In this document: positions 1 to 7,393 of the stretch, piece by piece | Numbering within the stretch: the first letter of the stretch is position 1 | Layout of the letters: each line of letters begins with the position of its first letter | Origin: an uncultured delta proteobacterium | GTDB taxonomy: Bacteria > Desulfobacterota > Desulfomonilia > UBA1062 | Direction: 5' to 3' | Assembly: GCA_963752595.1 (NCBI GenBank) | Contig: CAVVYZ010000017.1 | Coordinates: forward strand, 1 to 64,000 | DNA: 64,000 nucleotides | Notes under the pieces: generated by a model | What the model saw: only the letters and a program-made list of their open reading frames with translations | What the model was told of the DNA's origin: nothing | Database searches by the model: none | Position numbers and translations under genes: made by a program

Positions 1-1355
1 GCATACCGGAAGACAAGCTCGCTTCCGAGCGCAAGCTGTTCACGGAACGGAACAAGAAATCTTCTGCGATTTTCGAGAAGGCCAAGAACCTCATCCCCGG
101 CGGCGTTGAGCACAACCTGAGCCAGAACAAGCCCTTTCCCCTGGCCATGGACCGGGCCAAGGGCTACCGGATCTGGGACGTGGACGGCAACGAGTACATC
201 GATTATCTGCATGTGCGGCGCGCCCATCATCCTGGGCCACGGCTTCGACCCGCTGGATGAGAAGATCATCGAGATCATCCGGGAGAAGGGGCCGGCCACC
301 GGGCTGACCTCGGAATATGAACTGCTGGCCGCCGAGGAGATCATCAAGCACATGCCCGGCGTGGAGATGGTCCGCTTTCTCCAGTCCGGCACCGAGGCGG
401 ACATGGCCGCCATCCGCATCGCCCGGGCCTTCACCGGCAAGCAGAAGATCATCAAGATCGGCGGGAGCTACCACGGCTGGTCCGATCAGATGGTGTACTC
501 CCTGCATATTCCCGGGACCGGGGCTCTCAATCCAAGGGCATCCCGAACGAGATGCTATGCCCACATCGTGGACGTGGCGCCCAACGACTTCGACGCCCTG
601 GAAAAAGCCTTCAAGGACAATCAGGACAAGGGCGGCATCGCCGGCATCCTGGTGGAGCCCGTCGGCGGCGAGTCGGGCGCCCATCCGGTTCATCCGGACT
701 GGAACACGACGATCCGCGAACTGTGCGACCAGTACGGGTCGCTGCTGATCTTCGACGAAGTGGTGACCGGCTTCAGGCTGGACATGGGCGGCGCCCAGAA
801 ATACTTCAACATCATGCCCGACCTGACCGTGCTGGGCAAGATCATCGCCCACGGGTATCCCTCGTCCGGCGCGGTGGCGGGCAGAAAAGACGTGATGAGC
901 GTCTGCACGGGCGGCCTGGGCGAGAAGATCTACATCGGCGGCACCCTGGCGGCCAACCCGATTTCCACGGCGGCCTGCTACCACGCCCTGAAGCTCATGG
1001 AGGAGCACGACGCGGTGGGCAAGGCGACGGCCTATGCCGACAGGCTGACCAAGGCCATGAACGATCTCTTCGCCACGCGGCCCGATCTGGGCTTTTTCGT
1101 CTACAATTTCGGCCCGATCATGCACTACATGACCACCGCCTTCTTCTCCGTGGACCTGACCGCAGCCGGATGCCTTCAGCCAGATCCTCACCCGGAAGCA
1201 GGTAGCGGACGACTACCAGATCGTCACCATGGCCCACGGGCTGTGCACCCTGGCCGGGACCCGCATGTACACCTGCATGCAGCACGACGACGAGGCCCTG
1301 AAGAAGACCCTGGGGGTATGGGAATATCTGCTCTCCTCTGATCCCGAAGGGCTGA
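1..1355 (+). CDS. Class-III PLP aminotransferase (glutamate-1-semialdehyde aminomutase-like), 5' end outside the window, apparent frameshifts
   Basis: Frame 3 from base 3 reads ...IPGGVEHNLS...AKGYRIWDVDGNEYIDYL. It shifts at ~210 into ORF 211..1341 (SGTEA, LIFDEVVTGFR, PDLTVLGK). The C-terminus ...LAGTRMYTCMQHDDEAL...LIPKG* is recovered by further shifts at ~1162 and ~1338. Confidence 0.85.
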
Positions 1356-1388
1356 ACATTAGATGACTTACGGAAGGAGCATAACACC

Positions 1389-2722
1389 ATGAAAGACGAG
1401 GAACGACCAAAGTCAGATGGATGCCTTTGCCGACAAACCCATCGCCCTGCCCGAAGGCATCGATATGGAAAACCACGTCATCGCCACCTACTGGATCGAG
1501 GCCGACAGAACCATGGACATGGCGCTGATGGGCCAGATCCTGGCCATCGAGCAGACCACCGGCACCTGGGTGCCGGTGCCCGGCGAAACGCCGGAGGTCC
1601 GCGCCAAGCACGTGGCCAAGGTGATCGGCGTCTACGAGGCCCCGTACTACGAGTACGGCCGTGCCCGAGGATGTCGAGCACCGGCAGTATATCATGCAGA
1701 TCGCCTTCCCCTCCGCCAATGTCGAAGACCAGCTCCCCATGATGCTCACGGCGACCATCGGCAACATCTCCATGGTGCCCAATTTCAAGCTCCTGGACTT
1801 GCGGATTCCCAAGGCCACGCTGGACCAGTACAACGGCCCGAAATTCGGCATCGACGGCTGGTGGAAGGCGCTGGGCATTGAAGAAGGGCCGGCCGCTGCT
1901 CAACAACATGATCAAGCCGTGCAGCGGCTACCCCCTGGAAGTGGGCGCCAAGCTCTTCAGGGACGCGGCCCTGGGCGGCTGCGACGTGATCAAGGACGAC
2001 GAACTGATCGCCAACATGCGCTACAACGACGCGGTGGAGCGGGTCAAGACCTACATGGCGATCGAGAAGCAGGTGTATGAAGAGACCGGCGAGCACACGC
2101 TCTACACCGTCAACGTCACCGACCGTCTGCCGCGCATGTTCGACCTGGCGAAGCGCTGCATCGATGCCGGGGCCAACGCCATGATGGTGAACTATCTGGC
2201 CGTGGGTCCCGAGGCCATGCGCGCCCTGGCCGAGGACCCGGCCATCAACGTGCCCATCCTGGCCCACATGGACCTGGCCGGCGCGTACTTCATGTCGCCC
2301 TACCAGGGCATCTCTTCGCCCATCATTTTCGGCAAGTTCTCCCGGCTGTGCGGCGCGGACGCCATCGTGCTGCCCTTCTCCATGGGCGGCAAGGGCATCT
2401 ACATGCACGACCGCTTCATGGCCACCTGCCGCAACCTGACCTATCCCTTCGGCAACCTGAAGCCCACCATGCCCATGCCCTCCGGCGGCATCACGCCGGC
2501 CAACGTGCCCGATATCGTCGACGCCTGGGCAAGGACATCATGATCGGCTCGGGCGGCGGCATCCATGCCCATCCCAAGGGCCCGACAGCCGGCGCACGCG
2601 CCTTCCGCCAGGCCATCGACGCCGCGATCAAAGGCATCCCGCTGGAAGAGTATGCCCAGGAGCACGAAGAACTCGGCGTTGCCTTGGGCATCTGGAAGAA
2701 AAAGACCGAGTTCAAGATATAA
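1389..2722 (+). CDS. RuBisCO-like protein (form IV RLP), split by apparent frameshifts
   Basis: Fragments 1417.., 1661.., 1878.. and 2348.. join into one RbcL-fold protein: EQTTGTW, GPKFG, MIKPCSG, GGCDVIKDDE, PSGG, GSGGGIHAHPKGPTAGARAFRQA. AAGGAG RBS precedes ATG 1389. Confidence 0.9.
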
Positions 2723-4042: not shown

Positions 4043-5349
4043 TCAATAGATGAAATCGATGCCGACCGCAACGATGTTCGTGCTGTTCTTTGTATCCACT
4101 TCGCCTATCGGGGTATCAAAAGTTTCGTCATCCCAGAAGGTATGACTGTAGCTCACGTTCGCTTTGAGGTTTTCGGTTATGTTAAATCCGATTCCGGTGG
4201 ATACATTCAGGTTGTCGGAGTACAGCGTCTCGATTGCGCCGGTTGCATTGACGAAATACCCGTCCATGTCATGCCATGCATGCTTCGTGTACAGGAACCC
4301 GCCGCTCACCTCGAGTTTGGGCATCGCCTGGAAAGCCAGCGCAGCGCCGATGCTCCAGACATCACCTGCCATACCCGATATGGACTCTCCGGTATCCGAA
4401 TTTCCCCAGTCGGCATGCTCCTGGAAGAAGTAGTTGAGGTCCAGTTCCCCTCTGAGCTTTTCCGTGAGCTTATACGATGCACCCAGTCCGACCATGGCGG
4501 GAAAGTCTCTGCGGCTCCTCTCTCCGTCTGCGAACAGGCCCAGGTTGTCGTTCTCACTCACATCGGATTCAAAATTCAGGCGAACCTCTGTTTCGAACCG
4601 GAAGGCGATGTTCAGCTTATCCATCGGAACGATCTGGATGCCGAAGATGCCCCCCACCCGCCGGCTGACTGCTTCAGATCAACAACCAGGGGCACATCAG
4701 GCGTCAACGGCCCTGCCAGACCGCCGGTTACGGTAAGATCTCCGTCGATTTTATTATCCGCCTTGATATACCGGAGGCCTGCCGCTATCGAGACCTGGTC
4801 TGACAGCTTGTAGGCACCGCCGAGAGTCCCGGTAAGATAGCGGGAGCTGACTTCGATACTTTCATTCGAGATAGCGCTATACGCCCCGAAGAAAGGGCTT
4901 AAGGGGTTGAACAACAGGTCTGCACCGATTGCCCGGGTGGTGTATGAACCGTCGGGGTAATCGATGGTTACCCCGGCGCCCGGGATATAGATACCCGTAA
5001 AGGCAGACCAGGCGCCCTTCTTGTACGATGCGTACAGGTTCGGAATGAATAAGTCAGGGCCGTCCTGCTCGAAGCTTAAGCCCCCGCCGGAAATGGGATC
5101 GTCGAATGAGTGTTTGGGTTTGCGGAACATGAACTGGTTCGAGACGTTGAGATGGAACCCGTCTGAAAGAGAAACCAGCCCTGCGGGATTGTACACGACG
5201 ATATCGGCAGCATCGGTTGCAGCATTGCGGTTGGACATGCGCACCCACTCGGCGCTCATGTTGGTGAGATTGTCGATCTGCGCATATGCTTTTGCAGATA
5301 CTATCATACAAAACAGCCCCACAGCGATTGAGAAATATTTCATAGGCAT
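4043..5349 (-). CDS. FadL/OmpP1 family outer-membrane long-chain fatty acid transporter (frameshift ~4660-4680)
   Basis: Signal peptide, RNAATDAADIVVYNPAG motif, beta-barrel strands and terminal aromatic (DFIY). Split into ORFs 4612..5349 and 4043..4657. Confidence 0.8.
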
Positions 5350-5627
5350 TCTTCAAGATCCCCCTCTTAAAAAGGATTTGACCTTATTTCAAAGAAAAAC
5401 CCTGCATCTCGAAGCGGAACAGGTCATGAAGAGAGAATCACAATGAGGGAAAAAATGATATGACCGTTCCTGCCAAAGATAATACAAATCGGGCCAAAAT
5501 GAACACCATTACTTTCATGAATATGCAGGGCTTTACTATTTGACAATTGAATTCCCGGTTCGAGTTCTTATATTGAACATATCTTTAATTTTGCACAAAA
5601 ATTTTAAAAAAATGAGGAGGATTTTCC

Positions 5628-5843
5628 ATGGCAGACAAGGTCATCATCTATGGGAAGGCCGGCTGACCCTACACCGATCAGGCCAGGTCGGCCTATGGTG
5701 AAAAAGCTCTCTATTATGACGTGAAAAAGGACCAGGGCAGACTCGATGAGATGCTTGCCCATTCGGGCGGGCAGCGGCACGTACCCGTCATCGTGGAAGG
5801 CGGCAAGGTTACAGTGGGTTACGGCGGGTCCTGAGGGGTATAG
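5628..5843 (+). CDS. Glutaredoxin-like selenoprotein with two Sec (U13, U69), UXX-star type, copy 1
   Basis: GAGGAGG RBS, ATG 5628. Reading UGA as Sec gives MADKVIIYGKAGUPYTDQARSAYGEKALYYDVKKDQGRLDEMLAHSGGQRHVPVIVEGGKVTVGYGGSUGV*. It has the Grx-like UPYT, cis-Pro VP and IG/VG motifs, with a hairpin after each UGA. Confidence 0.9.
5680..5694 (+). promoter_or_regulatory. SECIS-like hairpin for UGA 5664 (copy 1)
   Basis: AGGCC-AGGTC-GGCCT, extendable by CACC/GGTG. The loop starts 18 nt after the UGA and resembles the E. coli fdhF SECIS apex (AGGUCU). Confidence 0.8.
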
Positions 5844-5846
5844 CGC

Positions 5847-5862
5847 GCCCATGGTCATGGGC
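5847..5862 (+). promoter_or_regulatory. SECIS-like hairpin in the 3' UTR for UGA 5832 (copy 1)
   Basis: GCCCAT-GGTC-ATGGGC; loop starts 18 nt after the UGA. Confidence 0.75.
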
Positions 5863-5888
5863 AGATAAAGGAACGAATCCACGATTAC

Positions 5889-5918
5889 TTCGCTCCCGGG
5901 CTCCGGCCCGGGAGCGAA
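5889..5918. terminator. Strong hairpin between the two selenoprotein genes
   Basis: TTCGCTCCCGGGC-TCCG-GCCCGGGAGCGAA, perfect 13-bp stem, no U-tract. Confidence 0.55.
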
Positions 5919-5974
5919 TCAGATGCCGTCAGTCTCCCTCCCTTCCCCCGATCTCTCGATTGCAGACCCGGTAC

Positions 5975-6002
5975 TTGATCCGGTGATCTCGTGTCATACA
6001 AT
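5975..6002 (+). promoter_or_regulatory. Putative sigma70 promoter for selenoprotein copy 2
   Basis: TTGATC-N16-TACAAT. Copy 1 has a comparable TTGAAT-N16-TATATT at 5547-5574. Confidence 0.4.
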
Positions 6003-6047
6003 AATTACTCATGAAGAATGCAATCTGATGAAGGGAGAAAATCCGCC

Positions 6048-6263
6048 ATGGCGAATAAAATAATCTTTTACGGAAAACCGAGTTGACCGTATTCAGACCA
6101 GGCCAGGTCGGCCTATCAGGACAGAGCCGAATATATCGATGTAAAATGGGATGATGAGAAGCTCGATGAAATGCTCCCCTACTCAAAAGGTGTCAGGCAG
6201 GTGCCGGTTATCGTAGAGGGGGAGAAGGTCAAGATCGGGTACGGCGGCACCTGAGGGATCTGA
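6048..6263 (+). CDS. Glutaredoxin-like selenoprotein with two Sec (U13, U69), UXX-star type, copy 2
   Basis: AGGGAG RBS, ATG 6048. Reads MANKIIFYGKPSUPYSDQARSAYQDRAEYIDVKWDDEKLDEMLPYSKGVRQVPVIVEGEKVKIGYGGTUGI*. Ungapped alignment to copy 1 gives 46/71 identities with both UGAs at the same codons. Confidence 0.9.
6100..6114 (+). promoter_or_regulatory. SECIS-like hairpin for UGA 6084 (copy 2)
   Basis: AGGCC-AGGTC-GGCCT, identical to copy 1; loop 18 nt after the UGA. Confidence 0.8.
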
Positions 6264-6264
6264 T

Positions 6265-6283
6265 GGCTCATCGGGTATGAGCC
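6265..6283 (+). promoter_or_regulatory. SECIS-like hairpin in the 3' UTR for UGA 6252 (copy 2)
   Basis: GGCTCAT-CGGGT-ATGAGCC; loop 17 nt after the UGA. Confidence 0.75.
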
Positions 6284-6310
6284 GGCATGTTGAGGGTTGG
6301 CAAAGAATCC

Positions 6311-7393
6311 TTATTCAAAAAAATCAGGCACGAAAAGTTCATTGAAAACCCGTAAAAAGGTCGTGTCTGTGAGGCTCGCGATGAAATCCCTCACCAGCTC
6401 GCCCGGGAGGTGTCTTTCCCGGTAGCACGCATCGAGCCTCCCCAGGAACCTCGCAGAGATGACCGAGTCCGTCCTTTTCTCCACGACATCCTCCAGGAGC
6501 CGCTGGAATATGAGATTGTACATGGTCCTGATCTTCGATGACTCGGTTTTTACCTTGGGATTGAGATAGATGTTCTCGTAGTTGAATCGTCTTAAGCTCT
6601 CCAGGGCTCTGAACACCTTTGACGAGTAGGCGATCCTTCCTTCCGTGGAATGTTTGAGCAGGTCCTCCACTAGGGCATAGACAATCTTTCCGTTCGTGTC
6701 TCCGAGCAGCCCGGAGGCCTCTTTGGGTATGTGGCTGCGTGCGATGATTCCCAGCGATATGGCGTCCTCGATATCGCGTCCTATGTAGCTTACGGTATCC
6801 ACGATCCGGACCAGACACCCCTCCATGGTCATGGGAGGCGGCATTTTGCCCTGCCCGGCAATCTCGATCTTTGCATCAAGGTCGGCGAAGGTGTGTGCAG
6901 GCTCCGGCTGTATGCACTGCTCGGAATTTTCACCGTTGTGGCACAGGATGCCGTCCAGAACCTGCAGAGTGAGATTCAGCCCCTTGCCGCATTTCTCGAT
7001 CCGCTCCAGGGACTGGATAGCCTGGACATTATGCCGGAACGGCCCGATGCCTGCCAGAATGCACAGCTCGTCGAGGTATCGCTCGCCGTCGTGGCCGAAC
7101 GGCGGGTGCCCGATGTCATGCCCGATGGCAATGGCCTCGATGAGGTCGTCATTCAGGCCCAGCCTGCGGCCGATGGTGCGGGCGATCCTGGAGAGAAGCT
7201 GTACGTGGATTACCCGGTGGGAGATGCCCTGGTGCCCGACGAGATAGAAGACCTGCGTCTTGTCGATGTACGAGGTGTAGGCCTGGGAATGGAGGATCCT
7301 GTCCACGTCGATGGAGAAGGCGTCCCTCATGTCCCACTTGCCGGATTTTTCTGCTCTTCTTCTTAAGGCTTTGGTAGGATGAGTACCGTTCAT
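6311..7393 (-). CDS. HD-domain deoxyguanosinetriphosphate triphosphohydrolase family protein
   Basis: DRILHS...DKTQVF, HR..HV, GHDIGHPPFGHDGE, D.VSY..RDIEDA, RDFIASLTD. Confidence 0.85.
   Translation of the reverse strand: MNGTHPTKALRRRAEKSGKWDMRDAFSIDVDRILHSQAYTSYIDKTQVFYLVGHQGISHRVIHVQLLSRIARTIGRRLGLNDDLIEAIAIGHDIGHPPFGHDGERYLDELCILAGIGPFRHNVQAIQSLERIEKCGKGLNLTLQVLDGILCHNGENSEQCIQPEPAHTFADLDAKIEIAGQGKMPPPMTMEGCLVRIVDTVSYIGRDIEDAISLGIIARSHIPKEASGLLGDTNGKIVYALVEDLLKHSTEGRIAYSSKVFRALESLRRFNYENIYLNPKVKTESSKIRTMYNLIFQRLLEDVVEKRTDSVISARFLGRLDACYRERHLPGELVRDFIASLTDTTFLRVFNELFVPDFFE

Follow-up and report, generated by a model that had tools for sequence, protein, structure and literature searches.

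UXX-star selenoprotein family 1 (NCBIfam model NF041114) appears as 'Distant Grx-like protein 1', with a UxxT motif and two selenocysteine (Sec, U) residues, in Table 1 of PMC13188914, where it stands outside the experimentally verified block. The same name was in use in 2022 (PMC9312934). In the parts of PMC13188914 consulted, it is suggested that the Sec residues of UXX-star proteins may be metal ligands or contacts to unknown substrates. The parts consulted of PMC2398784, PMC13326102, PMC12013277 and a preprint by Haft added nothing on family 1, and a literature search, also over partial texts, for a diselenide or C-terminal Sec mechanism in bacterial glutaredoxin-like proteins returned other families only. 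No tested function for family 1 was found in the passages of the main texts searched. The primary source on UXX-star is probably the 2025 article by Haft and Tolstoy (mSystems).

In glutaredoxins the glutathione-scaffold site consists of the Thr-Val-Pro loop before strand 3 together with the helix that follows it (PMC5382279, sections consulted), and a conserved active-site lysine contacts the glycyl carboxylate of glutathione (PMC11567954, sections consulted). In NrdH-redoxin the conserved lysine also lowers the active-site pKa (PMC5382279, same sections), and the presence of this lysine does not, therefore, point to a glutathione-like ligand alone.

The DNA examined here, referred to as the window, is a stretch of 64,000 nucleotides from an uncultured delta proteobacterium (contig CAVVYZ010000017.1, positions 1 to 64,000). 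Two short genes of UXX-star family 1, A and B, lie in tandem on its forward strand. Gene A (5628..5843) runs from the ATG at 5628 to a TAG ending at 5843 and gene B (6048..6263) from the ATG at 6048 to a TGA ending at 6263; each encodes 71 amino acids when in-frame TGA is translated as Sec. These TGA codons are codons 13 and 69 in both genes, at 5664-5666 and 5832-5834 in A and at 6084-6086 and 6252-6254 in B. Residues 13-16 read UPYT in A and UPYS in B, and the proteins end in GGSUGV (UGV-TAG) and GGTUGI (UGI-TGA), respectively. The two proteins are identical at 46 of 71 residues with no gaps, neither contains Cys, the starts are 420 nt apart, and neither gene is in the standard ORF listing of the window. 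A sequence-only reading of this DNA had proposed twin frames overlooked by ORF calling, and its spacing, UGA positions, identity count and absence of Cys were all reproduced. A tblastn search of the assembly gave no third copy.

Each gene has its own start signals. Ribosome-binding sites were read from the sequence at 5615..5620 (AGGAGG, + strand, gene A) and 6031..6037 (AAGGGAG, + strand, gene B), as the earlier reading had it, and both are kept in the congener G004, the other of the two family genomes with the tandem. Sigma-70-like promoter motifs, also on the + strand, precede A at 5547..5574 (TTGAAT-16-TATATT; TTGAAT-16-TATAAT at the aligned place in G004) and B at 5975..6002 (TTGATC-16-TACAAT, both hexamers identical in G004 within a diverged surrounding spacer). 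Six such motifs were found against 1.4 in shuffles, and those of A and B are among the six. The separate promoters suggested earlier are thus both retained in the congener as motifs, with a promoter function that is putative. A 13-bp perfect G+C-rich inverted repeat lies between the genes at 5889..5918 (-28.3 kcal/mol, no U tract); it occurs once in the genome, is absent from G004 and is probably not part of the A/B system. Rfam models run on 5300-6500 gave one chance match (E 2.6). Readthrough at the third UGA of B (codon 72) was considered and rejected, as the main hairpin is only 8 nt away and homologues stop there; an alternative G-loop hairpin at 30 nt is weak and is not kept in G004.

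Both proteins score well above the family 1 cut-off of 72 bits (A 112.2, B 102.9, with U entered as C and over model positions 1-70 of 70; 98 and 88.3 with the stops read through). They also pass the umbrella model NF041212 (84.3 and 78.1 against 66) and the PF00462 domain. NF041211 (family 2), NF047338 (family 3) and NF045501 (HUGP/GUXX-star fusion) give 46-53 bits against cut-offs of 97-325, TIGR02181 gives 31.3 and 27.4 against 90, and the TIGR02196 cut-off is likewise missed. A CPWC glutaredoxin of the ordinary YruB-like kind (L052:260-730), which has no Sec tail, reaches 74.8 with NF041212, and passing this umbrella model alone is therefore no proof of membership. The proposal that these are members of a UXX-star glutaredoxin-like family with two Sec residues holds, since both pass NF041114. 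The two-Sec design is already in print.

Homologues were collected as 59 genes from 57 loci, with a tail TGA required for selection. Duplicates (L023, L048), near-duplicates (L064, L067), cut or masked sequences (L092, L094, L096), a gene with an unclear start (L035), a decayed copy (L036), off-frame Pseudomonas-type matches (L097-L099) and plain glutaredoxin matches (L037-L046) were left out. Position 13 is TGA in 50 of the 59 and a Cys codon in the other nine; the tail TGA is present in all 59 by selection. Library proteins such as P0033, P0078, P0093, P0130 and P0168 carry Cys in place of the tail Sec, and homologues with Cys at the UGA positions, which the earlier reading had named as a check, thus exist for both sites. 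The stop position is TAA or TAG in 33 of 54 short-tailed homologues, and the residue after the tail Sec is Asp or Glu instead of Gly in 8 of these 54. Among named genomes, those of Syntrophales, other deltaproteobacteria and Nitrospirota hold the closest relatives, and the host is therefore likely, judged by this kinship, to be an anaerobe of that kind. A long-tailed variant has its second Sec at 75-82 (L049, L050, L035, L069, L076, L084), and three of these keep a full CxxC or UxxC. The decayed copy L036 (G006:C65:105844-106017) is also long-tailed; its first UGA has become TGG, it has no start codon and is frameshifted before the tail, and its genome has selA.

All four UGA codons are followed on the + strand by a SECIS-like hairpin. 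For A these lie at 5672..5700 (U13; loop AGGUC, 5685-5689) and at 5847..5862, 3' of the stop codon (U69; loop GGUC, 5853-5856), and for B at 6100..6114 (U13, upper stem; loop AGGUC, 6105-6109) and at 6264..6284, again 3' of the stop codon (U69; loop CGGGU, 6272-6276). In that order the loops begin 18, 18, 18 and 17 nt after the UGA. The bSECIS model, as given in the parts of PMC13188914 consulted, asks for a loop of 3-9 nt, a stem of 4-16 bp, a spacing of 16-37 nt, a G in the first two loop positions and a minimum free energy of at most -7.5, and in our own implementation of this model, which is distinct from bSECISearch, all four sites agree with it. The sites are not independent, as the genes are paralogous. 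By chance, a stem of at least 5 bp with a G-loop at 16-19 nt follows 4.7% of the 152,342 TGAs in the genome, and a stem of at least 6 bp follows 1.9%. Folding energies are unremarkable, with none of the four 39-nt stretches standing out from shuffles (z -0.31 to -1.85), and the hairpin after U13 of B, the weakest of the four, has a competing fold in longer windows. The case for SECIS elements is one of position and conservation, not of energy.

Conservation was scored as a G-loop hairpin of at least 5 bp located 15-21 nt 3' of the UGA. The tail UGA has such a hairpin, mostly in non-coding DNA, in 57 of the 59 homologues, and the first UGA has one in 38 of 50. The corresponding figures are four of nine for the Cys codon at position 13, 5 of 59 for the true stop and 232 of 2328 for random TGAs. 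Covariation was examined in a structure-blind alignment of 58 tail-hairpin stretches using five pairs picked by eye. These show pairing in 76.6% of cells (shuffles 59.0%) and 71 double-sided changes (shuffles 26.7), values reached in 0 of 500 shuffles; slid controls gave at most 58.3% paired. Two further measures, one counting pairs and one pair types, gave no separation from the shuffled sets. The SECIS geometry reported earlier for all four UGAs is borne out by these spacings, by agreement with the bSECIS model and by the conserved, covarying tail hairpin.

The Sec machinery is present in large part. Matches to selA, selB and selD in the genome score 524, 361 and 377 bits, all over cut-off, and selD itself has an in-frame TGA with a hairpin. 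Searches of this 84% complete assembly by Rfam, pattern, blastn, nhmmer and synteny did not find selC, which is present in four of five congeners tested, the exception being G004. A 69-nt 'SeC' tRNA called by ARAGORN was discarded as it matches neither Rfam nor the selC of the congeners. The expectation of a full selA/selB/selC/selD set was thus borne out for three of the four genes. We consider it very likely that A and B belong to UXX-star family 1 and are decoded with Sec. In the window genome (G000, C14:147172-151999) selB has an ACR3 arsenite exporter gene some 2 kb away on the other strand.

Among the 52 genomes of the host's family, window genome included, 11 have no selA match, and this is so for 9 of the 36 that carry a UXX-star gene. 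Five of these relatives (G021, G050, G024, G054 and G048) are 96-99% complete. Each has selB, selC, selD and a UXX-star gene with TGA codons, but searches with TIGR00474, PF03841 and the SelA of the window genome gave no selA match in any of them. SepSecS and PSTK, sought as stand-ins, were over cut-off in none of the 52. The gene that neighbours selA elsewhere was not found in four of the five and in G050 is present beside another gene. On the plain reading the missing selA genes are assembly gaps, and a non-canonical Sec synthase in these relatives could conceivably be at work.

The pair is old. The gene is present in 36 of the 52 family genomes and in tandem in two, the window genome and G004. 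Compared with their orthologues in G004, A shows dN 0.08 and dS 0.57 and B shows dN 0.09 and dS 0.48, and by these rates both copies are under purifying selection, as measured against this one congener. Synonymous sites between A and B are saturated (pS 0.88), which, with both copies being present in G004, rules out a recent duplication or an assembly duplicate. In the tree the A copies fall together (90/89), as do the B copies (93/94), though without a star on either grouping and with deeper forks left open. By sequence comparison, then, A and B are old, conserved paralogues of UXX-star family 1. The survival of both promoter-like motifs and both ribosome-binding sites within the diverged spacer of G004 supports two working genes with their own starts. 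The earlier claim that both paralogues are maintained is in keeping with the selection against G004; its suggestion of divergent roles gained no support from any test, as retained motifs do not show different jobs. The second copy is most likely a separately regulated, overlapping capacity.

The neighbourhood offers little guidance to function. On one side the pair is flanked by a convergent dGTPase-like gene, the usual neighbour in this family (18 of 30 loci), and on the other by an outer-membrane-like gene that is divergent and frameshifted. Neither has the look of a redox partner, and no conserved partner gene was found across the locus set. Elsewhere the genome encodes a thioredoxin reductase (TrxR; C17:269915-270823) that scores over cut-off, together with two PDO-TrxR fusions, including one on C3. 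Of 49 outside loci, eight have a PDO-TrxR gene downstream, all of them in Nitrospirota, and this fusion is a candidate reductant, suggested by gene order in that one clade only. In these eight loci (L082, L083, L077, L065, L062, L074, L073 and L068) the gene is the first in a run that also includes an isochorismatase-like hydrolase and the PDO-TrxR (AhpF-like) fusion, divergent from an ECF sigma/anti-sigma pair. Single frameshifts were seen in several genes (window 211-2722 and 4043-5349; G000 C20:148265-149168 and C29:56701-58220), namely an aminotransferase, a RuBisCO-like protein, the outer-membrane-like gene (named by eye), an EF-Tu-like match and a PDO-TrxR copy, and this suggests indel errors in the assembly. 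Within 211-2722 a class III aminotransferase lies directly upstream of the RuBisCO-like protein, whose best model, 2,3-diketo-5-methylthiopentyl-1-phosphate enolase, is below cut-off.

An AlphaFold model of A was built from a 54-row alignment with U entered as C. It has a glutaredoxin core (pLDDT 88.2; best Foldseek match 3ic4, TM 0.74) but lacks the helix that follows strand 4, with nothing helical beyond residue 63. DSSP marks a strand or bridge at 51-52 and at 69-70 (block pLDDT 88). When the protein was folded again as a control with the six tail residues removed, 51-52 was no longer marked. The tail is therefore predicted to pair with residues 51-52, just before Pro53, a pairing partner deduced from the two DSSP strings. 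Across the 54 sequences V52 and P53 are invariant and K10 and R50 are at least 90% conserved. In the modelled structure the tail takes the place of the helix of the glutathione-scaffold site. The glutathione-synthesis enzymes GshB and GshF are over cut-off in none of the 52 family genomes, a result that covers these two enzymes in genomes that are incomplete.

The predicted docking of the tail on the scaffold loop, the conserved K10, R50, V52 and P53 and the lack of GshB and GshF matches lead us to propose that the tail is a tethered stand-in for glutathione that would resolve U13, a reading to which we give a slightly better than even chance. U13 would attack an oxidised target, such as a protein disulfide; the Gly-Gly-Ser/Thr linker would then swing U69 into the groove beside the cis-proline strand, where it would resolve the mixed bond and leave a U13-U69 diselenide. 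A thioredoxin-reductase-type system (TrxR or the PDO-TrxR fusion, both present in the genome) could re-reduce this diselenide. The bond, the reductant and the substrate are those that we infer, and an intramolecular U13-U69 diselenide, as proposed from the sequence, is plausible in light of the model. The earlier idea that the C-terminal Sec replaces a missing resolving Cys is too simple as a plain swap. A CxxC or UxxC is kept together with the tail Sec in 4 of 59 homologues (L069, L076, L084 and L087), and in 16 of 150 library hits, known at the protein level only, the chain has CxxC and stops at the very point expected for the tail UGA. Substitution for the resolving Cys alone thus does not account for the tail; a resolving role of the tail is nevertheless what we propose. 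Relatives with Cys at both sites also exist: in a rough pattern count of the same library hits, a monothiol site occurs with a tail Cys in 12 of 150 and CxxC with a tail Cys in none. Taken with the model, A and B likely work as self-contained redoxins in which a selenium-bearing tail is predicted to stand in for glutathione. Extending this to family 1 as a whole, as glutaredoxins with their own selenium 'glutathione' whose S/T-U-G-V-COOH tail sits in the groove and whose U13 is recycled via a diselenide, is a tentative step that falls somewhat short of an even chance.

The same docked tail could serve a different chemistry, with the two selenolates coordinating a soft metal or metalloid (arsenite, mercury or copper) in a carrier or trap. 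This is rather unlikely. Metal-ligand roles are suggested for UXX-star Sec in the parts of PMC13188914 consulted, long-tailed relatives lie beside ArsR and ACR3 genes, an ArsM gene is found 20 nt upstream of a short-tailed gene in G012, and the library protein P0146 (240 aa) reads by eye as ArsR fused to a UXX-star-like domain ending at the place of the tail UGA. Near A and B, however, there is no arsenic or metal gene; the ACR3 gene of this genome is on another contig and no ArsM match passes E 1e-15, while within 1.5 kb of 30 family loci there is one close ArsM match and no ACR3 or ArsR match. The tail might also be an outward relay arm, with electrons entering at position 13 and U69 handing them to an outside substrate or to a second subunit (A-A or A-B), by analogy with the large thioredoxin reductases, which carry a C-terminal arm. 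Of the two Sec residues, the one in the tail varies less and occurs together with a full CxxC or UxxC in those four homologues, and long-tailed forms place Sec 13 residues further out (U82). The monomer model nevertheless places the tail, with good confidence, in the groove of the same chain, and a heterodimer is not required given the single copy in most genomes; an outward relay is therefore improbable in our view.

That the UGA codons are real stops, so that the genes are pseudogenes or encode truncated peptides, is very improbable, as is their translation as Trp by a different code. The absence of selC from the assembly, its indel errors elsewhere and the five nearly complete relatives that carry the gene without a selA match could be taken in this sense. 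Genes from many phyla, however, have TGA at these two codons, the alternative being Cys and not Trp, the covarying hairpin lies in non-coding DNA, and dN/dS is near 0.15-0.2 over the whole frame. Additionally, selA, selB and a TGA-bearing selD are present in the genome, and the five relatives without selA have selB, selC and selD. We retain the tethered stand-in for glutathione as the preferred reading of the tail.

If this reading is true, occupation of the glutathione site by the tail would account for the frequent occurrence of glutaredoxin-fold proteins in anaerobes without detectable glutathione synthesis, glutaredoxin chemistry would be open to anaerobes that do not make glutathione, and a natural intramolecular diselenide redox centre would be contained within 71 residues. 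The tandem pair would then be a natural two-variant test case; beyond the retention of two Sec-expensive copies it adds little. As genes, A and B amount to an annotation fix, being family members overlooked by stop-codon-naive gene calling.

Compared with class I glutaredoxins and the NrdH/YruB-like redoxins (PF00462; PDB 3ic4, 3grx), A and B have the same fold, the Lys at -3 from the active residue, the (U/C)PY motif and the Val-Pro loop. They differ from these proteins in lacking a resolving Cys, the helix that follows strand 4 and an acidic residue behind the Gly-Gly, and they carry a Sec tail instead and come from hosts without detectable GshB or GshF; the CPYC site of class I glutaredoxins is replaced by UPYT in A and UPYS in B. 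The other UXX-star models (NF041211, NF047338, NF045501 and NF041212) have the glutaredoxin-like core and the Sec-bearing tail in common with A and B. The likeness to UXX-star family 1 extends over the whole length, with about 70 amino acids, UxxT/S, a U two residues before the stop and two Sec residues. B has Ser where at least 90% of the aligned family homologues have Thr, and its G004 orthologue has UPYT. A and B are new members of a known family from which they do not differ as proteins, and the novelty of this locus is the tandem arrangement alone, with its separate promoter-like motifs.
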